A DNA stretch of 64,000 bases from positions 20,000-83,999 of the forward strand of contig JABXHR010000016.1 of assembly GCA_013373515.1 (NCBI GenBank). Direction: 5' to 3'. Made by a program: the position numbers and the translations under genes. The notes below the pieces were generated by a model. It worked only from the letters and a program-made list of their open reading frames with translations, searched no databases and was not told the origin of the DNA. Each line of letters opens with the position of its first letter. Within the stretch, counting starts at the first letter, position 1. This document shows positions 12,435 through 62,325 of the stretch, piece after piece. Source of the stretch: Gammaproteobacteria bacterium (lineage in GTDB: Bacteria > Pseudomonadota > Gammaproteobacteria > JABXHR01).

Positions 12435-13358
12435 ATGCGGAATGTGGTTATTGCCACCAGAGAAAGCGCCCTTGCCCTATGGCAAGCCAAGCACGTGCAA
12501 GCAAGGCTACAAGCCATTCGCCCAGAGTGGACGGTAAGCTTGCTTGGTATGACAACCAAGGGCGATATCCTCCTCGACAGCCCACTATCTAAAATTGGTG
12601 GCAAGGGTTTGTTCGTCAAGGAGCTCGAAGTCGCGATGATGGAAAAGAAGGCTGACCTTGCGGTGCATTCCATGAAAGATGTTCCGATGAAGTTGCCAGA
12701 GGGCTTTGCACTGTCTGCAATTCTCGAGCGTGAGCGTCCGACAGATGCCTTCGTCAGCAACCACTTCAAACACATCGACGACCTGCCTGAAAATGCGGTT
12801 GTTGGGACGTCGTCGCTACGCAGACAAGCGCAGTTGTTGAGCCGACGCCCAGATCTCAAGATCCGCTCATTGCGCGGCAATGTACAAACTCGTTTGCGTA
12901 AACTTGATGATGGTGAATTTGATGGCATTGTCTTAGCCACTGCAGGATTGATGCGGCTCGAGCTGCATGATCGAATTCGACACGAGATCGACGAGCATTG
13001 GTTGTTGCCCGCCTGCGGACAAGGTGCCGTTGGCATCGAGAGCCGCGAAGACGATCATGAATTAAACACCGCCCTACAGGAGCTAGCTCATCTGGAGACC
13101 ACTGTTTGCGTGCTTGCGGAGCGAGCGATGAATAGCTACCTAAACGGCGGCTGCCAGGTACCGATTGCAGGGTATTGCGTGATCAAAGACGGTACTTTGC
13201 ATATGGAAGGTCGTGTTGCATCCGAGGACGGCACAGAAGTGATCGCACATCAAGCCGTGGGCTCCATCGATGAGTCAACCCAGCTTGGTGAAAGCATTGC
13301 CCAAACGATGTTGGCCCAAGGTGCGGGTAAGTTGTTGGAAGCGCTAAATCAAGAATGA
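12435..13358 (+). CDS. hemC: Porphobilinogen deaminase (hydroxymethylbilane synthase)
   Basis: HemC sequence ([10 protein letters not shown]..., GGCQVPIAG) with the dipyrromethane cofactor Cys. Confidence 0.95.
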
Positions 13359-14086
13359 GTGTCAAACAAAAAGTGTTGGTGTCGAGACCAAGATCCCAAT
13401 GCCATCAACTTGCTGAAGGGGTATTCGCGCTAGGCGCGGAGCCTCTTGTAATGCCTAGCATAGACATCATTAAATTGACGATACCGCCAGAGAACATGAC
13501 CGGTGCAACGGCCATTGTCACCAGCGCAAATGCAGCCCATTCAGCAATGGAGAACGGCTTCATCTTTGATGACGTAAAATTGTTAGCGGTTGGAGCTGCC
13601 ACGACTCGCAGCTTCACGCAAAAGGGGTACACTGTGCGGTGGACGGCAGAGCCTGCCAACTCCGAAGGCGTGGTCGAGATATTGCGATCGGCAGAAGATT
13701 GCCAAGATACACCGTTTTTTCTACTGACAGGGGTCGGTGGACGCAATCTCATACAAGACTATCTGGTTCAGTCTGACCTCCAGTTTAGGCGTTTAGACTT
13801 ATATCGCAGACAAGATTATCCGTTTGATCGCGGGGAACTGGATCGATTGTCGTCTTTCAATGGTCTTGTTACGGTGGGCAGCAATGAAAGCCTTTCGAGT
13901 TTTCACCGTCAACTAGGTACTAGATTTTCTGGCTTTGCTGAAAATCCACTGGTGGTGAATAGCGAACGTGGGAGACAACATGCGTTGTCATTGGGTTGGC
14001 AAGGAGACATTTATGTCCCAATGACACCTGGTGATACAGGACAGCTAGCTTGTATTGGCCAGTGGTTAACAAAATTTGAAGTTTGA
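13355..14086 (+). CDS. hemD: Uroporphyrinogen-III synthase
   Basis: 4-nt overlap with hemC; HemD-like, 243 aa. Consistent with hemCDXY order. Confidence 0.8.
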   Translation: MSVKQKVLVSRPRSQCHQLAEGVFALGAEPLVMPSIDIIKLTIPPENMTGATAIVTSANAAHSAMENGFIFDDVKLLAVGAATTRSFTQKGYTVRWTAEPANSEGVVEILRSAEDCQDTPFFLLTGVGGRNLIQDYLVQSDLQFRRLDLYRRQDYPFDRGELDRLSSFNGLVTVGSNESLSSFHRQLGTRFSGFAENPLVVNSERGRQHALSLGWQGDIYVPMTPGDTGQLACIGQWLTKFEV

Positions 14087-14095
14087 GGATTACAC

Positions 14096-15325
14096 GTGTC
14101 AGAAAAAGATGAAGTAAAGGCAACACCAGCCACTGAAGACACCACCGTGTCCAAGTCAGTTGGGGGGGGCTTTATCGCAGTACTCGCGCTGTTATTAGCA
14201 CTTGCTGCAGTCGGAAGCGGGGGCTGGTTTTTCAATCAGCAAAAGAAGGCCGGTGAAGAGAGCACGCAAAAATTCAGCACCTTACAACAGTCTATCGGAA
14301 GCGCTGATAGCAAAGTTTCAGAGGTAGAAGCCTCCGTATCAGCCATTGAAGCTGCGCTAAATGCGCGCATTGATGAACTCGCTTCAACGCTGAATACCCA
14401 AACCCAAGCGGTTGCCGCCGAAGCACAATCAAATTTAGATGCAGCGATTGCGGCATCTACAGAAGCGCTCAAGAGTGAGGTGGCCACAGTCAATACCACC
14501 TTGCAGCAAGCCTTGGATGTCACCAATAAGAATCTTGCAATCACCCAAGATCTCGCAGCGGGCAACAACATTGACATGTTGTTAAATGAAGCCGCATTTT
14601 TGATGCGTATGGGCGCTCATCAGGCCAGTATTGCCAGCAATGCGAGCGCTGCGATTGAAGCCTATGAAGCCGCTGATCAAGCCATTGGTCGCACGGGGCT
14701 GACCGATGTGACTGATATTCGAAAGCAAATTCGTATTGAAATTGGATTGCTTCGTCGTTATGAGCAGCCAGATATCGAAGGGTTGCTTATGAGGCTAGAC
14801 GAACTAGCCATGGCCAGCAACAACTTAGCTCTACCCATCGATGCCAGCACCGTAAAACCCGTTGCTGAAGTGGTTGAAACGACGCACGAACCAGTGGCGC
14901 AAACGGCAACAACCTCCACGCCATTTGAATGGTCGTTAGATTCAATTGGGCAAATCATTGAAAGCCAGGCTGCTGAACTTGGTAACGCACTGGTCGAGAA
15001 TGTACGTCAGTCAGTCGTTCAACCAGAGCCAGAACCAAGTCAAGTCGCGATTCGTCAATACGGCAGCAATGCAGAAGCCAGAGACGCCATTCGACGCGCA
15101 ACTGGAGCGGTTATTCGAGGCGATCAAAGCAACTTTGTCGCCGCACTGGAACGTGCAGCAGAGGTTATTCGCACGAACTTCGACACAGCTGACACTGGCG
15201 TCAACTACGTGCTTGAAGAACTTGAAGCGGTCAAGCAATTACCAGTACGCCTCGACACCACCGGTTTAGGTGAAGCAGAGGCCATGTTAAGAGAATTCAC
15301 TATTCAATTGGGGGCGTCATCATGA
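14096..15325 (+). CDS. hemX: HemX family protein (membrane-anchored, coiled-coil, Ala/Gln-rich)
   Basis: Position after hemD. N-terminal TM segment followed by a long Ala/Glu/Gln-rich region. Confidence 0.75.
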   Translation: MSEKDEVKATPATEDTTVSKSVGGGFIAVLALLLALAAVGSGGWFFNQQKKAGEESTQKFSTLQQSIGSADSKVSEVEASVSAIEAALNARIDELASTLNTQTQAVAAEAQSNLDAAIAASTEALKSEVATVNTTLQQALDVTNKNLAITQDLAAGNNIDMLLNEAAFLMRMGAHQASIASNASAAIEAYEAADQAIGRTGLTDVTDIRKQIRIEIGLLRRYEQPDIEGLLMRLDELAMASNNLALPIDASTVKPVAEVVETTHEPVAQTATTSTPFEWSLDSIGQIIESQAAELGNALVENVRQSVVQPEPEPSQVAIRQYGSNAEARDAIRRATGAVIRGDQSNFVAALERAAEVIRTNFDTADTGVNYVLEELEAVKQLPVRLDTTGLGEAEAMLREFTIQLGASS

Positions 15326-16341
15326 GGACGTTATTCTGGGTTGTGCTGTCCATATCAGTAGCACTTTGGCTTGGTGTGCTTTTGCACCAAGATGGGTCCA
15401 CATTGACCATCGTTTGGCGCGAGCAACCTCTGGTCAATATGACGCTACTAAAAGCCTCTATATTTGGTTTGGTGGGCTTTGTTCTGCTCTATATCGTATT
15501 TAGATTATTTGGTTGGATTGGACGAATTCCGAAACACTTAAGAGAGCGTGGCAATCGCAAGGCCTGGGTTAAGGGTGCTAAGGGTTTAAAGGGTGCTTTG
15601 ATCCAACTCATCGAGGGCAACTACGCTAAGGCTGAGAAACTCACTTCAGCAGAATTTCCGGATGAAGAATCATTAGTCCACCATTGGCTCGGTGCGCAAG
15701 CGGCACACAAATTAGGTCGTTCAGCGCTCCGCGATAGTCATATCGAAGCGGCAATTACTGCGAATCCCGATGCTGATCGTGCAATGCGCATTGTTCAAAC
15801 CGAAATGATGTTGGAGTCTGGTGAATTTGTTCAAGCGCTCACAAATTGCGAAAAACCAGCCCTTCAAGGTGCGACTCAATATGCAGATTTACGCTATCGC
15901 GCAGCGGCAGGCGCAGGCGATCACAGAACAGCTTTGTCAGCACTCAAACAGCGTTTTGAACGCAAAGCGATTTCATCTGAGTCACTCGTTGAACTAGCCT
16001 CAGCGCATATGGAGTTAGCGTTAGATCATTGTGAGAATGCCGCTGATTTGGAGAGTTATATTGGCTTTATGCCAAGGGCGCTCAAAAACTCAGATCTGAC
16101 CATGTGGTTTAAAGCCAAACGTTTACTGGCATTGTCAGATGAGACTGCAGGGTTAAAAATCATGGCAAAATTGATGCACGCTGGCATGCCAGACAAGGTG
16201 TTTGAAGATGCGGTTTCACTTGGTCAAACTAATAGCCAAGTCCAAGCACTTTTAGAGGATGCAGCTAAGCGTTTTGGTTCCGATCCTCGGTTTCAGTCCT
16301 TAGCCGCTAGCGAGCCACCAAAAGCACTTGCTGCTGAGTAA
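15322..16341 (+). CDS. hemY: HemY family protein (TPR-like, two N-terminal TM helices)
   Basis: 4-nt overlap with hemX. Two TM helices followed by a TPR-like region. Confidence 0.75.
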   Translation: MRTLFWVVLSISVALWLGVLLHQDGSTLTIVWREQPLVNMTLLKASIFGLVGFVLLYIVFRLFGWIGRIPKHLRERGNRKAWVKGAKGLKGALIQLIEGNYAKAEKLTSAEFPDEESLVHHWLGAQAAHKLGRSALRDSHIEAAITANPDADRAMRIVQTEMMLESGEFVQALTNCEKPALQGATQYADLRYRAAAGAGDHRTALSALKQRFERKAISSESLVELASAHMELALDHCENAADLESYIGFMPRALKNSDLTMWFKAKRLLALSDETAGLKIMAKLMHAGMPDKVFEDAVSLGQTNSQVQALLEDAAKRFGSDPRFQSLAASEPPKALAAE

Positions 16342-18407: not shown

Positions 18408-21799
<3,392 letters not shown>

Positions 21800-21810: not shown

Positions 21811-22911
21811 CTAAAGACGAATAGGCATCACGACGAATTTAACATCATCGACACCTGGTGGAAGCACAAGTACACTCGCATTAGAATCGCCAAGCTTGAA
21901 CTCAACGGTCTCAGATTGAATAACCTTCAAAACATCGATGATGTAACGGATATTAAATCCGATTTCGAGCGCTTCACCGGAGTAATTGAGTTCCACCGCA
22001 TCCTCAGCCTGCTCTTGTTCTGGGTTATTGGCTTGAACACTCAGCTGATCACCTGCAAATTGTAACCTTACACCGTTAAATTTTTCATTCGATAAAATCT
22101 GTACACGATTCAATGCCGCTAATAGCGCATTACGATCTACTGTTCCAATTCGATCATTGTCCAGCGGCATGACCCGTCGGTAGTCGGGAAATTTTCCATC
22201 AATCAGCTTTGAGGTAAAACAAAGCGATCCAGATCTCATTTGAATGTGTTGATCAGACAATGAGATTTGCGCTGATGTCGCCGGATCGTCCATCAATCGA
22301 ATCAGTTCGCGAACACCTTTATTCGGAATGATGACTTGCTTGGCTTCTGCAACCATTGCAGGCAGCTGATGCTTTGCATAGCTCAATCGATGACCATCTG
22401 TCGATACCGCGGCAAGCACGTCGCCTTCAATCTCCAGCAGCAAGCCGTTGAGGTAATAGCGAACATCTTGCTGTGCCATTGAAAAATCGACACGACTAAA
22501 TAACCGCTTCAAATCTTCCTGAACGATATCAAATCGCGTTGAAGCTCCGACAGAATCAGTCTTAGGAAAATCAGCTGCGGACAACATCGACAAAGTAAAC
22601 TTTGCACGACCGGCTTGTACGGTGGCTTTGGTTTCTGCCAGTGAAATATTGACAGTAGAATCATCCGGTAAGGAACGTAGGATGTCAAATAGCTTTCGAG
22701 CAGGCAATGTCCATTCAAAATCAAAATCAGCATCAACCTGTACACTATCTTTCAACTCAATTTCTGTGTCTGTTGTGGTCAGCTCAAGGAGTCCTTGATT
22801 GAGCTGAAAGAGCACTGTCCCTAACACCGGTAATGTATTTCTTCGTTCAACTGCTCCAATGACACGGTTTAATGGTCTGAGCAAATCGTTCTTAGCGATG
22901 CTGAGCTTCAT
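21811..22911 (-). CDS. dnaN: DNA polymerase III beta sliding clamp
   Basis: MKLSIAKNDLLRPLNRVIGAVERRNTLPVLGTVLF...; 366 aa. Confidence 0.97.
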   Translation of the reverse strand: MKLSIAKNDLLRPLNRVIGAVERRNTLPVLGTVLFQLNQGLLELTTTDTEIELKDSVQVDADFDFEWTLPARKLFDILRSLPDDSTVNISLAETKATVQAGRAKFTLSMLSAADFPKTDSVGASTRFDIVQEDLKRLFSRVDFSMAQQDVRYYLNGLLLEIEGDVLAAVSTDGHRLSYAKHQLPAMVAEAKQVIIPNKGVRELIRLMDDPATSAQISLSDQHIQMRSGSLCFTSKLIDGKFPDYRRVMPLDNDRIGTVDRNALLAALNRVQILSNEKFNGVRLQFAGDQLSVQANNPEQEQAEDAVELNYSGEALEIGFNIRYIIDVLKVIQSETVEFKLGDSNASVLVLPPGVDDVKFVVMPIRL

Positions 22912-23137
22912 ATATCTACCTTATATATATAAATATTGATGTTGCTAGTTCTAGCCAACTTTTGGTGGATAAGTTAATTTTTAACTTAAAAAACAATAAA
23001 TTATGTAAATAACAACTTTGTACATAACCAGCCAGCAAACCTCTGAGTAAAACCTGTATAACTACGATATTTTTCTATGACACGTTGTTGTCCACGGGTT
23101 TGTACAAAGGTTATCCCACGTGTTATCCACATTGAAA
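22912..23137. promoter_or_regulatory. dnaA-dnaN intergenic region with clustered DnaA boxes and an AT-rich tract; candidate oriC and/or dnaN regulatory region
   Basis: One perfect TTATCCACA at 23123-23131. Imperfect boxes at 23111-23119 (TTATCCCAC) and 23088-23096 (TTGTCCACG). Inverted box GGTGGATAA at 22964-22972. AT-rich 22911-23035 (TATATCTACCTTATATATATAAATATTGAT...). Confidence 0.5.
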
Positions 23138-24463
23138 TCACTCCTGCAAAATTCGCATAAGTGCTTGATAATCCTTCGAAAATCTCTCGTCCGTTTGAAG
23201 TAGTTCGTCAACCTTCTTAACCGCATGCATCACCGTTGTATGGTCACGGTCGCCAAATGCTTTGCCAATGTCATTCAAGCTGCTGTCGGTTAATTGTTTG
23301 GCCAATGCCATCGACATTTGTCTTGGACGCGCGATACGACGTGCACGCGACGCGCTGAGCAATTCTGTCATACTGAGTTTGAAAAATTCACAGGTATTGC
23401 GTTGTATATTGTCTACCGAGATCCTTCGATCCCGAGAGGCAAAAGTCTCGCGCAATGCACGCTTGGCAAGCTCAATAGTGATCGGCTGCTTTTGAAAATC
23501 TGCTTGCGCGATCACGCGGTTTAACGCCCCTTCGAGTTCGCGGACAGTCGAACCTCCGCGATCGGCTATCAATAGTGCGACATCGTCCGGTAACTGGTGC
23601 CCATTTCGTTCAGCCTTGGCATGAATGATTGCCACACAGACTTCAAGTTCCGGGCGTTCAATCTCGGCCACAAGCCCCCAAGCGAAACGAGAGCGCAGGC
23701 GCCCCTCTATACCTGTGACGTCCATTGGAAATTGGTCACAGGTCAGAACGATCTGTTTATTGGTGTCCAACAATGCATTGAACAGGTGAAAGAACTCTTC
23801 CTGGGTTCGATCTTTATTGGCAAAAAACTGAATATCATCGATTAACAGTGCATTCACATTTCTAAACGAGCGCTTGAACTCATCCATCGAGTTGCTGCGC
23901 AACGCAGCGACCATTCTTCGAAAATAATCCTCAGCCGACATACAAACCACATTGGCTTCGTGGTTGGCATCTTTGATTGCATTGCCTACGGCGTGCATCA
24001 AGTGCGTCTTGCCAACACTGTAAGGGCCAAAGATTACCAGAGGGTTGTAACGTACCCCAGGTTCTGATGCGGTTGCCATTGATGCGGCGCGAGCGAATTG
24101 ATTGGATTTCCCCTCGACGAAGGCATCAAAGGTGTAGTTTTTGATTAGCCCCGCCGAGGCAATCATCTGTTTGGGTTTCGCTGAGGTCGGATTTGGCACA
24201 GCTGACGCAGCTTTTTGCGGTCCACCTGTGGAATAAACGACCTTAAACGACTCAAGACCAGAAATTGCACGTGCTAGCTCGGCAATTCGGTCGCCAAACC
24301 GTGCCTGCAATTCTTGTTGCACGAATCGATTCGGTGCATATAGCGTCAAAGCAGTCTCAGAGAGGCTGTGTTGTAATGGATGAATATAGGTACTGACCAG
24401 CCCGGGATCGAATTCCGACTCTAAGCGACGAACACAATTGGCCCACAGCGGGTTGGACGACAC
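23138..24463 (-). CDS. dnaA: Chromosomal replication initiator DnaA
   Basis: AAA+ Walker A GPYSVGKTHL. C-terminal DNA-binding domain. 441 aa. Confidence 0.97.
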   Translation of the reverse strand: MSSNPLWANCVRRLESEFDPGLVSTYIHPLQHSLSETALTLYAPNRFVQQELQARFGDRIAELARAISGLESFKVVYSTGGPQKAASAVPNPTSAKPKQMIASAGLIKNYTFDAFVEGKSNQFARAASMATASEPGVRYNPLVIFGPYSVGKTHLMHAVGNAIKDANHEANVVCMSAEDYFRRMVAALRSNSMDEFKRSFRNVNALLIDDIQFFANKDRTQEEFFHLFNALLDTNKQIVLTCDQFPMDVTGIEGRLRSRFAWGLVAEIERPELEVCVAIIHAKAERNGHQLPDDVALLIADRGGSTVRELEGALNRVIAQADFQKQPITIELAKRALRETFASRDRRISVDNIQRNTCEFFKLSMTELLSASRARRIARPRQMSMALAKQLTDSSLNDIGKAFGDRDHTTVMHAVKKVDELLQTDERFSKDYQALMRILQE

Positions 24464-24603
24464 AGATTCTCCCCATCAAAACCGATCAACGACCCGCTAT
24501 CATACGAAGAATCGGTATAGTTATCCACAATAAAAGGAGTCAGCAGTTGACGTTCTAGGACTTTAATGCTAAATTTTCGCGTTCACTTATTGGAAGACAC
24601 GTT
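24464..24603. promoter_or_regulatory. Divergent dnaA/rpmH promoter region. Single perfect DnaA box at 24521-24529. Putative rpmH sigma70 promoter: -35 TTGACG 24547-24552, -10 TAAATT 24570-24575.
   Basis: TTATCCACA sits 58 nt upstream of the dnaA start. GATC at 24484-24487. TTGACG-N17-TAAATT lies about 30 nt upstream of the rpmH ATG. Confidence 0.45.
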
Positions 24604-24738
24604 ATGAAACGTACATTTCAACCTAGCGTTTTGAAGCGCAAGCGTTCACACGGCTTTCGTGCACGCATGGCAGATCGCCACGGCCGTGCAGTTCTGGCTC
24701 GTCGTCGCGCAAAAGGTCGTAAGCGCCTTTCAGCTTAA
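24604..24738 (+). CDS. rpmH: 50S ribosomal protein L34 (44 aa); not present in the ORF track
   Basis: Manual translation gives [44 protein letters not shown]. Confidence 0.92.
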
Positions 24739-25121: not shown

Positions 25122-25336
25122 TTGGACTGATTAAGGTGTATCGCTACGGCATTTCACCCTTTTTGCCAGCTCGCTGTCGCTACATTCCAAGTTGCAGTGA
25201 ATATGCCCTTGATGCTGTTAAAATTCACGGTGCGATAATCGGCGGCAAATTAGCGGCCAAGCGGCTTTGCAGCTGTCATCCATGGGGTGGGCACGGCTAC
25301 GACCCAGTGCCTCCAAAACAAACAGAAACTAAATAG
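25118..25336 (+). CDS. yidD: Membrane protein insertion efficiency factor YidD
   Basis: [14 protein letters not shown]...[12 protein letters not shown]...[16 protein letters not shown] overlap with rnpA. Confidence 0.88.
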
Positions 25337-26941: not shown

Positions 26942-28297
26942 ATGTCTGACACCATCTGTGCCATTTCCACAGCCGCTGGGCAAGGTGGTGTCGGAATCGT
27001 TCGAATCAGCGGACCTCAAGCACTCGAGCTGGGGTCGCTGATCTGCCAAAAAGCTTCCCTCAAACCCAGATTCGCCACTCGGGCACAGTTTGGTATTGGC
27101 ACGCCCATCGACGATGGCATTGCGCTGTACTTTCCGGGTCCAAATTCGTTTACCGGTGAGGACGTTGTTGAGCTGCAAGGTCACGGCAGTCCTATTGCGT
27201 TAAATGCCCTCCTCCAAGCCCTTTGTGAACAGGGCGCGCGATTGGCCGAACCCGGTGAGTTTTCCAAACGAGCTTTTTTGAATGATCAATTAGATCTTGC
27301 TCAAGCCGAGGCGATTTCAGATCTGATCGCGGCCAACAGTGAGCGTGCCGCTCGAAGTGCTGTGCGGGCGCTTCGAGGGGAGTTTTCCACCCGAATTGAA
27401 ACGCTGGCCAAGGCAATGATTGAGCTCAGAGTGTGGGTGGAAGCGGCACTTGATTTTCCAGAAGAAGAAATCGATTTTCTCGCCGATGAAGCGCTCGCGG
27501 CACGGCTTGATCATGTGCGCAGTCTGATGGATGATATCTTGGCAAAAGCGACGCAAGGTGCGCTGTTGCGTAACGGTGCGAAGGTTGTGCTGATGGGTCG
27601 GCCTAACGCCGGTAAGTCGTCATTGCTCAACTACCTTGCCGACGAAGAACTCGCCATCGTGACGGATATTCCAGGAACCACTCGTGATCTGCTGTCGACT
27701 CAAATCAATCTTCACGGGGTTCCCTTACACATTACGGATACTGCGGGCTTGCGAGAGACGACAGATCCTGTCGAGCAGGAGGGCGTGCGCCGCGCACGCA
27801 AAGCCTTGAGCGAAGCAGATTTGGCGATTTTGATCGCGGACATCAATAGTCCAGAACATATGGATGAATTGAGCGAAGAGCTCGGGCGCGACTACCCCCA
27901 AGTCCCTATTCTCAAAGTGTTTAATAAACTCGATCAGCTTGAGACACATGTCAGCAAAAAACAGGATTTGTTTTTGCCTTTGGATCCCTCAGCGTTGCAA
28001 GTGTCAATTAAGCAGGCGATCGGCCTAGAGCAACTGAAGGACCAGCTCGCGCAACTGGTGGGTATCGATCAATCTGAGTCTGATGTTTTTATTGCGCGCA
28101 CCCGACACCTAGACGCATTGCGCCGTGCGCGTCAGCATTTTGATTGGGCAGAAGCGCAATTGTTGCAGTATGCCGCGGGTGAACTAATGGCAGAAGAGCT
28201 GCTGCAAGCGCATCATGCGCTGGGTGAGATTACCGGCAAACTGAGTGCTGACGATCTACTTGGTGAGATCTTCTCCAGTTTCTGTATCGGCAAATAA
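26942..28297 (+). CDS. mnmE: tRNA modification GTPase MnmE (TrmE)
   Basis: G-domain GRPNAGKSSLLN, DIPGTTRD, DTAG. C-terminal ...FCIGK. Confidence 0.97.
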   Translation: MSDTICAISTAAGQGGVGIVRISGPQALELGSLICQKASLKPRFATRAQFGIGTPIDDGIALYFPGPNSFTGEDVVELQGHGSPIALNALLQALCEQGARLAEPGEFSKRAFLNDQLDLAQAEAISDLIAANSERAARSAVRALRGEFSTRIETLAKAMIELRVWVEAALDFPEEEIDFLADEALAARLDHVRSLMDDILAKATQGALLRNGAKVVLMGRPNAGKSSLLNYLADEELAIVTDIPGTTRDLLSTQINLHGVPLHITDTAGLRETTDPVEQEGVRRARKALSEADLAILIADINSPEHMDELSEELGRDYPQVPILKVFNKLDQLETHVSKKQDLFLPLDPSALQVSIKQAIGLEQLKDQLAQLVGIDQSESDVFIARTRHLDALRRARQHFDWAEAQLLQYAAGELMAEELLQAHHALGEITGKLSADDLLGEIFSSFCIGK

Positions 28298-28300
28298 AAT

Positions 28301-28318
28301 AGGGCTCATGCGAGCCCT
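28301..28318. terminator. Hairpin AGGGCTC-ATGC-GAGCCCT between the convergent mnmE and DUF2852 genes
   Basis: Perfect 7-bp stem. A T-rich run follows on the minus strand (better terminator for the DUF2852 gene); weaker U-tract on the plus strand. Confidence 0.45.
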
Positions 28319-28322
28319 TTGG

Positions 28323-28715
28323 TTAGCCGCCTTTGGCCGCAGAGTCCATAAATTCTTCAAACTCCTTTTCTTGCGCACGGCGTTTGGCCTGTGAGCGGAA
28401 CGTTTGGAACGCGGAAGCTCTGGTCTGTATTTCTTCCTCGATCTCGCGAATCCGATCGTATTGAGTGTTTTGGTATTCATTGAATACCTCATTGTCTGTC
28501 GAGGCCGCCTTAAACGCAGACCCTGTATTCTCGCCCGTCCACTCGTGCCATTTTTGCTTGGCGGCCGCAGGTAGGTCTTTAACGTGACGACCAGACCATG
28601 ACCAAAACAAGATGACTAAGCCAATGGGCCAAAAGAAAATTAACCCAAGCACTGTTGCCAAGATGTTGGCTTTGGGCCAGCGGTTACAGTTGTGGTTTTT
28701 GGTTGATTTTTTCAT
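28323..28715 (-). CDS. DUF2852 family membrane protein
   Basis: MKKSTKNHNCNRWPKANILATVLGLIFFWPIGLVILFWSW... Divergent from a TetR gene, which is the usual pairing. Confidence 0.55.
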   Translation of the reverse strand: MKKSTKNHNCNRWPKANILATVLGLIFFWPIGLVILFWSWSGRHVKDLPAAAKQKWHEWTGENTGSAFKAASTDNEVFNEYQNTQYDRIREIEEEIQTRASAFQTFRSQAKRRAQEKEFEEFMDSAAKGG

Positions 28716-28823
28716 TACACATTCCTTTATGTGAACACTGTTCGCATTAATAATGCTACACGTTGTTTGCGTTTTCAAGCAATAATCCCTATAAAGTGAT
28801 CACTGTTTACATTGAATTACCAA

Positions 28824-29444
28824 ATGAAAAAAACCAGTTATCACCACGGTGCGTTGGCAGAGGCACTTTTGAATGCGGTTGACGACATTGCAATGCAGTT
28901 CGGGCTTGAAGCCGTCAGTTTGCGCGCGTGCGCTAAGAAAGTTGGGGTATCGCCCTCATCGGCCTTTCGTCACTATGCCGACAAACGAGCGCTGTTGACG
29001 GCGTTTGCCACGCGCGCCATGTGGCAGCTGATCAATGTAATGTCTGAGGCGCGCACAGCACCTGACCCACTTAAGTCAGTAAGCCTTGCCTATGTCGATT
29101 TTGCGCTCAGTCATCCGTATTACTTTCGCGTGATGTGGCGCGAGGAAGGGATTTACATACAGGATGAGCACTACGTCCAAGCCGCGACAAAATTGAAGCA
29201 ACTTTTCAAGGCGGGCTTTGCGGAAACGTTGCCTGACGACGATCCAGAGCGGTTTAGTTCGATTGAAATTCTAGCGTGGAGCGGCGTTCATGGGGTTGCG
29301 AGCTTATTGACCGAAGGGCATATCGGCAAACAACTTGATAAAGCGCAAAAGCTTGATCTGGCGGCGAGGATGATCGATGCCTTATCAAAGGGGCTCAATG
29401 CATCGCAAATCGCAGTTCATACACAATCATTTCGCCCTGATTAA
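28824..29444 (+). CDS. TetR family transcriptional regulator
   Basis: N-terminal HTH (...GLEAVSLRACAKKVGVSPSSAFRHYADKRALL). An ATG start at 28824 is preferred over the TTG at 28812. Confidence 0.8.
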   Translation: MKKTSYHHGALAEALLNAVDDIAMQFGLEAVSLRACAKKVGVSPSSAFRHYADKRALLTAFATRAMWQLINVMSEARTAPDPLKSVSLAYVDFALSHPYYFRVMWREEGIYIQDEHYVQAATKLKQLFKAGFAETLPDDDPERFSSIEILAWSGVHGVASLLTEGHIGKQLDKAQKLDLAARMIDALSKGLNASQIAVHTQSFRPD

Positions 29445-31430: not shown

Positions 31431-31548
31431 TTGTCCGTACTTGTCAGGTTGGTGTCAGAAAACCTTGTTACTAATTGCAGCTGTGACTGTTGCCGCCGCA
31501 ATCATATGACGGTGCATCATAGCTTATTCAAAAAGATGGAGAGTACTA

Positions 31549-32517
31549 ATGAAATTAAAAATGCAACAACTTGTCGCGGGCATTTCACTGTCTGTTGGCT
31601 TGATCGGCACCAGCTTCGCGGCTGAGTGTATTGCCCCTGCGAACCCCGGCGGCGGTTGGGATTTTACCTGCCGCACCATTGGCAAAATCATGTATGACAT
31701 CGGCGCAGTCGCCGATCCAGTCCAAGTCACCAATATGGCCGGTGCAGGCGGTGGCTTGGCCTATACGCATGTAGTCAATGAGCGCAATGACGACGGTGAT
31801 TTGATTGTGGCTGCTTCTTCTGCGACGGCGACACGTCTGGCTCAGAATGCCTATGGTGGTATGACTGCAGATCAAGTCCGCTTTCTCGGTGCGATTGGTG
31901 CAGATCCAGGCGTGATCGTGGTCGCAAAGGATTCACCTCACCAGACGCTTACAGATCTACTCGATGCAATCAAAGCGGATCCTGCGTCAGTCGCCTTCGC
32001 AGGGGGCTCAGCGGCAGGGGGCTTTGATCACCTTAAAGCATTGATGGCGCTCAATCGTGTGGGTTATACCGATATTCGCTCGGTGAAATACATCGGCGTG
32101 GATAGTGGCGCAGATGCCATCACACAGACGATTGGTGGATTTACCCAAGCCATGACCGGTGATATCTCTGAAGCAGTTGGCTTTATCAAGTCTGGCGATG
32201 TACGTGTATTGGCGGTGTTCACCGATGAGCGTCTGCCGGGCGAATTTAGCAATATCCCCACTGCCAAAGAGCAGGGCGTCGATGTTGTGGCGGTAAACTG
32301 GCGTGGTCTGTATGTGCCCAAGGGCATTGATCAAGCAGACTACGATAAATGGTCTGATGCACTTGCAAAAGTTGCTGCCTCACAAGAGTGGGCTGATGCG
32401 ATGACAGCCAACGGTTTGGCGCCGTTCACCAAAGTAGGCGATGACTTCCAAACCTATCTTGATGGGGTGATTGCCGAAGTACAAACCATGTCCAAAGAGC
32501 TTGGAGTGATCCAGTAA
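31549..32517 (+). CDS. tctC: Tripartite tricarboxylate transporter substrate-binding protein TctC (Bug family)
   Basis: Signal peptide followed by TctC/Bug-like sequence. Followed by tctB and tctA. Confidence 0.85.
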   Translation: MKLKMQQLVAGISLSVGLIGTSFAAECIAPANPGGGWDFTCRTIGKIMYDIGAVADPVQVTNMAGAGGGLAYTHVVNERNDDGDLIVAASSATATRLAQNAYGGMTADQVRFLGAIGADPGVIVVAKDSPHQTLTDLLDAIKADPASVAFAGGSAAGGFDHLKALMALNRVGYTDIRSVKYIGVDSGADAITQTIGGFTQAMTGDISEAVGFIKSGDVRVLAVFTDERLPGEFSNIPTAKEQGVDVVAVNWRGLYVPKGIDQADYDKWSDALAKVAASQEWADAMTANGLAPFTKVGDDFQTYLDGVIAEVQTMSKELGVIQ

Positions 32518-62023: not shown

Positions 62024-62325
62024 CGTGCTAGTGACATCTAGCACTTGCTGATATCTCTCTTCCTACCCAATGGCTTGGCGTCAACTCAAAGTGGTTTTGT
62101 TTTAACCGTTTGATTGCTCGTTCGCAAAACCCAAAAAATTACTCCCCGGAAAGTTAATCAAATTCAGCTTAGGTTACGTACCTTTCTGCCTAGTGTGATT
62201 TGTTAAAAATATTCGCTAATTTGTTGAAATAAATAATTTTATGTCCTAAACCTTAGTGGCGGCTCAGAGAAGATCTGCTCGAAAGATCGACTGACCGCAC
62301 GCATATTTTGGTGGGGGAACACATT

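Follow-up and report, generated by a model that had tools for sequence, protein, structure and literature searches.

The dnaA-dnaN spacer as a probable chromosomal replication origin in an uncultured gammaproteobacterium

The 226-bp spacer between dnaA and dnaN (22912-23137) is probably the chromosomal oriC of the MAG to which it belongs, or at least its DnaA-binding and unwinding module. Judging from sequence, we put the probability of this reading at roughly 0.8. An original prediction from the letters alone had proposed a candidate replication origin in this spacer, and four lines of evidence now strongly support it: a nearby GC-skew minimum, a strong predicted melting site, purifying selection on the spacer and its correspondence with a class of related spacers. 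The same prediction had called the arrangement unusual for this lineage. We reject that description because 47 of 74 nearest-homolog loci share the layout, and because an origin has already been predicted at this position in Thioalkalivibrio sulfidiphilus. The origin is very probably a compact one in the ancestral position, with a Bacillus-like placement. From the loci compared, this placement appears to be common among gammaproteobacteria outside the E. coli and Pseudomonas groups.

The window, which is the whole 64-kb stretch of DNA analysed here, is part of a 111-kb contig of an uncultured MAG named 'Gammaproteobacteria bacterium'. All positions are those of the window, whose first letter corresponds to contig position 19952. 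Two short contigs from other samples, L081 and L082, encode DnaN proteins at least 90% identical to that of the window and served as close ('~90%') relatives. The features of the locus are as follows.

21811-22911, minus strand: dnaN (TIGR00663, 331 bits, NCBIfam), transcribed away from the predicted origin.
22907-22950: second AT tract, on the dnaN (canonical) side of the R1-type box, overlapping the dnaN ribosome-binding site and start codon.
22934-22954, minus strand: trinucleotide-periodic, DnaA-trio-like array CTA GAA CTA GCA ACA TCA ATA, 9 nt after the R1-type box.
22964-22972, minus strand: R1-type DnaA box TTATCCACC (GGTGGATAA on the plus strand), 1 mismatch, invariant in L081 and L082.
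22969-23026: main AT-rich tract (85% AT), the site predicted to melt most strongly under superhelical stress.
22991-23003, plus strand: IHF-like site AAACAATAAATTA, which differs from WATCAANNNNTTR by 1 mismatch and is separated from the R1-type box by 18 nt.
23036-23067, minus strand: central block with two degenerate boxes, TTTTACTCA (23044-23052) and TTATACAGG (23053-23061), with no substitutions in L081 or L082.
23088-23096, plus strand: weak box TTGTCCACG, 2 mismatches, replaced by TTGTACACG (3 mismatches) in L081 and L082.
23111-23119, plus strand: degenerate box TTATCCCAC with 3 mismatches, forming a tandem with the perfect box, from which 3 nt separate it.
23123-23131, plus strand: perfect DnaA box TTATCCACA, unchanged in both L081 and L082; the dnaA stop codon is 6 nt away.
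23138-24463, minus strand: dnaA, 441 aa, GTG start (TIGR00362, 496 bits, NCBIfam; protein NVK29633.1).
24521-24529, plus strand: perfect box TTATCCACA, alone in the 140-bp rpmH-dnaA gap.
24604-24738, plus strand: rpmH (NCBIfam).

The minus strand carries gyrB, recF, dnaN and dnaA, and diverging from them on the plus strand are rpmH, rnpA, yidD, yidC and mnmE. The gene following mnmE belongs to the TetR family (NCBIfam). The NCBIfam matches agreed with the genes, the gene coordinates and the 226-bp and 140-bp gaps of the original prediction. The 140-bp rpmH-dnaA gap spans 24464-24603. In a collection of 5.8 billion proteins, the nearest DnaA was 51% identical, so no intermediate relatives publicly exist. 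mnmG was absent from the 81 kb of contig inspected, and a second origin of the Pseudomonas oriC2 type may therefore lie elsewhere.

The spacer itself has few features of other kinds. Rfam gave zero matches over the whole window, so the spacer is not a known RNA. The scan of the spacer for promoters and terminators found no sigma-70-like promoter and no terminator-like site. There are 0 GATC sites where 1.3 would be expected by chance, and thus nothing in the spacer points to Dam/SeqA control (sequestration). A gene finder called a 43-aa ORF in the spacer of L081 and L082. We judged it to be non-coding because substitutions fell 4, 8 and 3 times at codon positions 1, 2 and 3, with no bias to the third position.

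Cumulative GC skew, calculated over 80.9 kb of the 111-kb contig, was V-shaped with its minimum at 25188, about 2 kb from the spacer. The slope was negative for 32 kb leftwards and positive for about 45 kb rightwards on both gene strands, and the negative left side includes stretches of plus-strand genes. We also separated replication side from gene strand by a per-gene regression. This regression placed the strand-corrected change point at 24.75-25.75 kb (22.5-30 kb as the 10%-RSS range). Because the replicon is not closed, the minimum is a local one, for 81 kb of the 111-kb contig. On this scale it lies within the distance of about 0-20 kb from the origin used by Weigel (Weigel 2025, bioRxiv 10.1101/2025.08.05.668638). 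A skew minimum at this spacer had been named as a check of the original prediction, over the whole replicon; the local 80.9-kb curve gave one at about 2 kb.

Three gaps fall in the change-point interval, namely rpmH-dnaA, the gap downstream of mnmE and dnaA-dnaN, and only the last combines DnaA boxes with AT-rich DNA. The gap downstream of mnmE (28298-28811) was rejected as an origin, as it has no boxes and a plausible small gene inside. Boxes were likewise absent from the mnmG-mnmE gap of Alkalilimnicola ehrlichii. The rpmH-dnaA gap holds two divergent promoter-like sites, one on the dnaA strand and one for rpmH, which fill it and leave no room there for an origin.

Perfect TTATCCACA boxes occur only twice in the 64 kb, at 23123-23131 and 24521-24529. 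Both of these and the inverted box at 22964-22972 (1 mismatch) are where the original prediction had placed them. The two boxes that it called near-consensus have the right coordinates but not the strength, since 23088-23096 has 2 mismatches and 23111-23119 has 3. It had also proposed a search for boxes with one mismatch. Over the whole window this search found 14 boxes with at most 1 mismatch against 12.5 expected, which is no enrichment. It did single out the spacer, which alone among the intergenic regions of the 64 kb has a DnaA-box cluster. Two boxes with at most 1 mismatch within 226 bp have a Poisson probability of 0.0012, and this pairing is unique to the spacer in the window.

When matched to TTWTNCACA, the spacer has five boxes with at most 1 mismatch and two weaker ones in its 226 bp. 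A count of 5 is at the low end of the range of 5-18 quoted for origins (Weigel 2025, section 2.2.12). Only three boxes are both good and conserved in the close relatives. The AT-rich matches TTATTTACA (23004-23012) and TTATGTACA (23019-23027) are not conserved in relatives and are probably chance matches in AT-rich DNA. The box at 23088-23096 is probably marginal. At 23111-23119, the tandem position and all bases except the first are kept in L081 and L082.

Comparison with relatives also suggests how the boxes are laid out. The R1-type box aligned with a conserved box of all 46 other long spacers, both in a MAFFT alignment and in a box-anchored view, and it appears to face the unwinding side. 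In the MAFFT alignment, the central block (23036-23067) falls opposite the tandem forward-oriented boxes of the class, TTATCCACAGG..ACAG. The perfect box at 23123-23131 would then mark the distal, 'R4-like' end of the origin. The layout implied by the original prediction does not stand: its three dnaA-side boxes would form the distal R4-like end, and it is the 'inverted' box that would face the unwinding side.

The spacer also holds the most AT-rich DNA of the window. The 120 bp at 22908-23027 reach 78% AT, about 5.7 sd above the 49% mean of the window, and rank first among 120-bp stretches of the 64 kb; the original prediction had noted a strongly AT-rich stretch of roughly this length. The 60 bp at 22969-23028, with 85% AT, rank first among 60-bp stretches. 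We calculated melting with our own exact-partition-function version of the Benham (SIDD) model, using copolymer energetics, 0.01 M salt and 310 K. Within a 2.5-kb segment, 22969-23026 opened with probabilities of 0.25, 0.95, 0.99 and 0.999 at sigma values of -0.045, -0.05, -0.055 and -0.06, respectively. The tract was dominant in 2.5-kb and 5-kb contexts and was the strongest site of the window when this was scanned in 5-kb tiles. With 22964-23030 masked, the tract at 22907-22950 opened next, with a probability of 0.92 at sigma -0.055. As a positive control, the model was run on E. coli oriC, where it opened the 13-mer region (-69 to -24, counted from the R1 box). Raising the salt to 0.1 M left the whole 2.5-kb segment closed; we therefore relied on the 0.01 M calculations, and the E. 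coli control was run at that salt too. Within this simplified copolymer model at 0.01 M salt, the signal deepens with negative superhelicity, which is the behaviour that Weigel 2025 looks for in an unwinding element.

The two AT tracts lie on opposite sides of the R1-type box. Weigel 2025 looks for a reverse-oriented TGTGNAWAA box, with 1 mismatch allowed, about two helical turns downstream of the unwinding element. The plus-strand form of the R1-type box has 1 mismatch. At a distance of 22-23 bp to its left, near 22941, ends an AT tract that is the second-ranked melting site. This tract covers only about 27 bp on the canonical side, and the ribosome-binding site of dnaN, AAGGTAG at 22916-22922, overlaps with it. 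dnaN itself lies on the unwinding side and is transcribed leftwards, away from the spacer, as in the arrangement of Weigel 2025. The R1-type box is followed directly on its right, the non-canonical side, by the top-ranked melting site. In this model, the tract at 22969-23026 is a candidate unwinding element or, alternatively, a bendable IHF region.

Purifying selection on the spacer is strongly supported by comparison with the close relatives. The spacer is 85% identical to those of L081 and L082, against 72% for third codon positions of dnaA and 58% for those of dnaN (Fisher p = 1e-8). The invariant blocks coincide with predicted elements. They are 22912-22944 (AT tract and dnaN ribosome-binding site), 22963-22974 (inverted box), 23036-23067 (central block) and, bar one base, 23109-23132 (tandem boxes). 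The AT tract at 22975-23035 evolves at an approximately neutral rate, except for the IHF-like core.

We next consider more distant relatives. Both gaps were measured at the dnaA loci of three of the nearest homologs and of 80 homologs from metagenomes, whose DnaA proteins are 42-51% identical to that of the window. A further 80 alphaproteobacterial DnaA loci (about 40% identity) were left out as an exact-peptide seeding artefact of the species-genome scan. The 74 loci mentioned above are those with a measurable dnaA-dnaN spacer, and the 47 that form the long-spacer class include the window. Where the spacer was at least 175 bp (median 4 boxes), the rpmH-dnaA gap was shorter than 400 bp (median 192 bp, 1 box) in all 39 of 39 loci. 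Where the spacer was short (median 46 bp, no boxes), the rpmH-dnaA gap was at least 400 bp and had 3-8 boxes in 15 of 19 loci. Among these loci, a long spacer and a long rpmH-dnaA gap thus exclude each other (Fisher p = 1.3e-10). In four loci both gaps were short, as in E. coli. The window, with a 226-bp spacer of 5 boxes and a 140-bp rpmH-dnaA gap of 1 box, falls within the limits of the class (a boxed spacer of 175-312 bp and an rpmH-dnaA gap below 400 bp with no more than a few boxes). Other members include Alkalilimnicola ehrlichii (220-bp spacer) and a Xanthomonadaceae MAG (230 bp).

The class architecture was read from a MAFFT alignment of the 47 spacers and from a view anchored on one box. 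Starting from dnaA, there are 1-2 TGTGGATAA-oriented boxes directly after the stop codon, then 1-2 TTATCCACA-oriented boxes, a YAANNNNTTGAW motif (IHF consensus), a conserved forward box, a GC-rich gap of 12-13 nt, a period-3 array with the consensus CTAATAAYAAYAATAA, AT-rich DNA and finally dnaN. The class therefore appears, on alignment, to show the order box, gap, trio and AT tract of the basal unwinding system. Class members typically carry a box within positions 1-13 counted from the dnaA stop codon, and that of the window is at spacer position 7. A second box of the same orientation about 11-12 nt after the first is common. The R1-type forward box lies 47-109 nt before dnaN in the class and 61 nt before it in the window.

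IHF-like matches with at most 1 mismatch were found in 19 of the 47 class members, compared with 5.8% of shuffles. Seventeen of the 19 (the window and 16 others) start exactly 31 nt before the next box, and the window match TAATTTATTGTTT accordingly stands at offset -31 from the R1-type box. In the close relatives the core of the motif is kept in both L081 and L082, and its four 'N' positions differ in all three sequences.

The period-3 T/A array of the class profile starts 13-14 nt after the box. Under the strict rule for basal unwinding, the box may have up to 2 mismatches, and three or more NAN triplets in succession must follow it after 0-16 bp on the TGTGGATAA-reading strand; the reported box-to-trio spacer peaks at 10-13 bp (PMC8287927). 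The start of the class array matches this peak. The box of the window (1 mismatch) and its 9-nt gap agree with the strict rule, but the trio run does not: no canonical-strand run that begins in the 16 nt beyond the box exceeds 1 trio. In 6 of its 7 triplets the array reads NYA, and the strand opposite the canonical one has 7 consecutive NAN.

The melting model was also applied to 40 class members. The dominant melting site of the 2.5-kb segment was within the spacer in 33 of them, and in 7 of the 40 there was none. In 24 of the 33 the site was on the dnaN side, at about +21 to +72 when counted from the first base of the R1-type box. The window is one of the other 9 of 33, in which the site comes just ahead of this box and covers the IHF-like site (-43 to +2 in the window), and it thus departs from the class majority in this feature.

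Several known origins resemble this arrangement in part. The closest in position is that of the gammaproteobacterium T. sulfidiphilus HL-EbGr7, in which oriC was predicted in the 251-bp dnaA-dnaN gap (Weigel 2025). Both loci have the rpmH/dnaA-dnaN-recF-gyrB context, dnaA-dnaN gaps of similar length (251 bp there and 226 bp here) and a short rpmH-dnaA gap (193 bp and 140 bp), and both origins are predictions. They differ after mnmE, which is followed by mnmG in T. sulfidiphilus and by the TetR-family gene in the window. An origin flanked by dnaA and dnaN is a common and probably ancestral arrangement (PMC4285127). The order described by Weigel 2025 is an outward-transcribed gene, an unwinding element, trios and an R1 box. 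Read from the dnaN side, the class shows this order, with the IHF site after R1.

Like the incC part of Bacillus subtilis oriC, whose basal unwinding system consists of DnaA boxes 6/7, DnaA-trios and an AT-rich 27-mer, the spacer has dnaA, boxes, a trinucleotide array, AT-rich DNA and dnaN in the same position and polarity. Its box-to-array gap is inside the reported 0-16 bp (PMC8287927), and dnaN is transcribed away in both. However, B. subtilis depends on a further cluster of several boxes upstream of dnaA, where the window has one box. The array of the window also lacks at least 3 consecutive NAN, and its spacer has an IHF-like site and R4-like distal boxes, as proteobacterial origins do.

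Like E. coli oriC (mnmG-mioC), the spacer has the order and orientation DUE, R1, IHF site ... R4. The distance from the R1 box to the IHF core is 18 nt in both, for which the E. coli oriC sequence was verified at 100% identity. The terminal boxes are mutually inverted, 159 bp apart in the window and 180 bp in E. coli, and in each case transcription of the gene next to the unwinding side runs away from the origin. The differences are the gene context, which is dnaA-dnaN here and thus not of the E. coli type, the GATC sites (11 in E. coli oriC and 0 in the spacer), the absence of 13-mer repeats from the window and the place of its richest AT tract, which is on the IHF side.

The gene neighbourhood of the window is the same as that of Pseudomonas aeruginosa and the Halomonadaceae, which have oriC1 in the rpmH-dnaA gap and oriC2 upstream of mnmG. 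The 'left part' of those origins follows the same logic of unwinding element, trio, R1 and IHF site (Weigel 2025). The gap lengths are reversed: the median there is 65 bp for dnaA-dnaN and 534 bp for rpmH-dnaA (Weigel 2025), and in the window it is the dnaA-dnaN gap that is the longer one.

From these elements the following working of the origin may be proposed. On the plus strand, with dnaN to the left, the predicted order is the AT tract at 22907-22950, the array at 22934-22954, the 9-nt gap and the R1-type box at 22964-22972. After 18 nt this would continue with the IHF-like site at 22991-23003, within the AT tract at 22969-23026, then the degenerate boxes at 23036-23067 and the tandem boxes at 23111-23131. 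DnaA-ATP would occupy the strong boxes at both ends, and an IHF-type protein would bend the AT-rich middle. A DnaA oligomer would then grow from the R1-type box onto the neighbouring trio strand and melt the AT-rich DNA by dnaN. Possibly, the larger AT tract on the other side of the R1-type box opens instead. Helicase would be loaded and forks would depart bidirectionally. dnaN would be transcribed through the origin from dnaA, as in B. subtilis. The analysis shows the sequence elements with their conservation and their counterparts in relatives, the skew switch and the predicted melting; protein binding, the AT tract that opens first and origin firing are our inference.

It is doubtful that the principal unwinding tract is the one beyond the R1-type box, towards the IHF-like site, here and in about one quarter (9/33) of the related origins with a predicted melting site in the spacer. 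If it did, the geometry of opening would be outside the current model of box, trio and AT tract. Origin opening and dnaN expression could then be physically coupled, since the ribosome-binding site and the start codon of dnaN overlap with the remaining tract on the canonical side.

The role of the perfect box at 24521-24529 bears on whether the spacer is the whole of the origin. This box sits at -66 from the dnaA start and overlaps the -35 hexamer of the sole promoter-like site on the dnaA strand (24527-24499). It is probably the autoregulatory operator of dnaA, mainly repressing the dnaA promoter, and possibly also an auxiliary origin box. In a bipartite origin, the spacer would be the unwinding module and this box would be needed for full activity, with DnaA bound at both sites looping out the dnaA gene as in B. 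subtilis and Helicobacter pylori. The spacer is indeed below the 250 bp under which the procedure of Weigel 2025 asks for a second sub-region about 1.5 kb away, the perfect box is 1.39 kb from the spacer, and class members repeatedly show one lone box at -64 to -88 from the dnaA start. Nevertheless, we regard a bipartite origin as unlikely. Known bipartite origins have a box cluster in each part (PMC4285127), whereas there is one box here; its overlap with the predicted -35 hexamer would alone explain its conservation as an operator; and in 11 of 39 class members dnaA is not preceded by any box of at most 1 mismatch.

Two further explanations would deny that the spacer is an origin. It could be only a DnaA-controlled promoter or operator of dnaN, with the true origin elsewhere on the chromosome. 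DnaA acts as a transcription factor at many loci, gidAB-parAB of P. aeruginosa being one example (PMC13438810). The AT tract abuts the dnaN ribosome-binding site, and the skew was seen for 81 kb rather than for the whole replicon. The original prediction had kept this reading as its fallback, but the spacer lacks any promoter-like or terminator-like site, the skew minimum is within about 2 kb, and no other intergenic region of the 64 kb is boxed. Regulation of dnaN would also leave unexplained the exclusion between a long boxed spacer and a long boxed rpmH-dnaA region, the E. coli-like module of R1, 18 nt and IHF site, and the succession of box, gap and trinucleotide array. We consider it improbable. 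Strong DnaA boxes together with an IHF site are also the ingredients of datA and DARS2 in E. coli. The spacer, with its few strong DnaA boxes and an IHF-like site, could accordingly be a DnaA-titrating or -recycling locus (datA- or DARS-like) beside dnaA and no origin at all. However, datA and DARS loci are not known to be tied to a skew switch, a dominant melting site or a trio-like array by an AT tract. Class-wide exclusivity with the rpmH-dnaA type of origin also speaks against titration, as it implies one element in alternative positions. This explanation is very improbable.

The preferred reading thus remains an origin in the dnaA-dnaN spacer, and it is mostly an ordinary result: the origin adjoins dnaA, as the field expects. 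Origins of this kind are already known, and the dnaA-dnaN region of Xanthomonas campestris reportedly replicates autonomously. What is new here is such an origin in a poorly sampled lineage, with one minor variation, the position of the AT tract. The finding would place the origin of a deep-branching uncultured gammaproteobacterium, which aids replichore orientation, coverage-based growth rates and assembly checks. Among its gammaproteobacterial relatives, the origin appears to lie in either the dnaA-dnaN or the rpmH-dnaA gap, and almost never in both. The R1-18 nt-IHF spacing and the phased array of the dnaA-dnaN version link a Bacillus-type position to an E. coli-type layout, and this link supports the dnaA-dnaN site as the ancestral one.

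Among the dnaA neighbourhoods of relatives whose DnaA is 42-51% identical (loci L083-L165), long, DnaA box-bearing dnaA-dnaN spacers never occurred together with long, boxed rpmH-dnaA gaps; the two were mutually exclusive (39/0 versus 4/15, p = 1.3e-10). Both gaps are short in 4 of these loci, as in E. coli, and both are longish in L090 (312/354 bp) and L133 (246/338 bp).

The side of the R1-type box (in the window, the DnaA box at 22964-22972, minus strand) on which the dominant melting site is predicted was compared in 40 loci, 33 of which have a predicted site inside the spacer. In a minority, 9 of these 33 dnaA-dnaN origins, the dominant site falls to the IHF side of this box and not to its dnaN side:
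L092, L113, L119, L134, L145, L152, L153 and L084: dominant predicted melting site on the IHF side
Window 22969-23026: dominant predicted melting site on the IHF side

A GC-rich subgroup of the loci has no separate AT-rich tract:
L141, L142, L143, L146, L151, L155 and L156: GC-rich subgroup
No melting site was predicted in six of the seven, the exception being L141, with a weak site (opening probability p = 0.36). In this subgroup the trinucleotide array (for example CTATTAACTACTACTAAGG) continues without a break into the ribosome-binding site of dnaN, which lies about 48 nt past the box.

Two other strong melting sites were predicted in the window:
62191-62255: strong predicted melting site, p = 0.996
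31515-31573: strong predicted melting site, p = 0.98
The latter lies within the 118-bp gap between two divergent genes, a response regulator gene and a plus-strand gene. Neither site contains DnaA boxes at one mismatch or fewer to TTATCCACA.

Within the dnaA-dnaN spacer, gene callers reported an ORF of 43 amino acids, also called in two short contigs of approximately 90% relatives (L081 and L082):
Window 23008-23132, minus strand: 43-aa ORF
L081 1312-1443: 43-aa ORF
L082 91-222: 43-aa ORF
Its ATG start codon overlaps a DnaA box. As a gene it is almost certainly spurious, because substitutions between the relatives are distributed 4/8/3 over codon positions 1/2/3.

The cumulative skew curve shows a secondary dip and rise, produced by a block of four plus-strand genes in the left replichore (window 12435-16341) whose GC skew is positive (+0.02 to +0.10), opposing the local trend. 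Third-position skew in this block is mixed, which suggests an effect of gene strand or, possibly, an earlier inversion.

At window 26942-29444, the genes that come after mnmE are a small membrane-protein ORF and a TetR-family regulator, whereas in Pseudomonas, Alkalilimnicola and Thioalkalivibrio mnmE is followed by mnmG-rsmG-parAB; mnmG was not found within the 81 kb examined. The closest DnaA in a search of 5.8 billion proteins is 51% identical, and the close relatives found were limited to two short contigs, which come from SRR14597289 and ERR3428544. DnaA and GyrB of the MAG each form a singleton 90% cluster, and the source lineage is very isolated.
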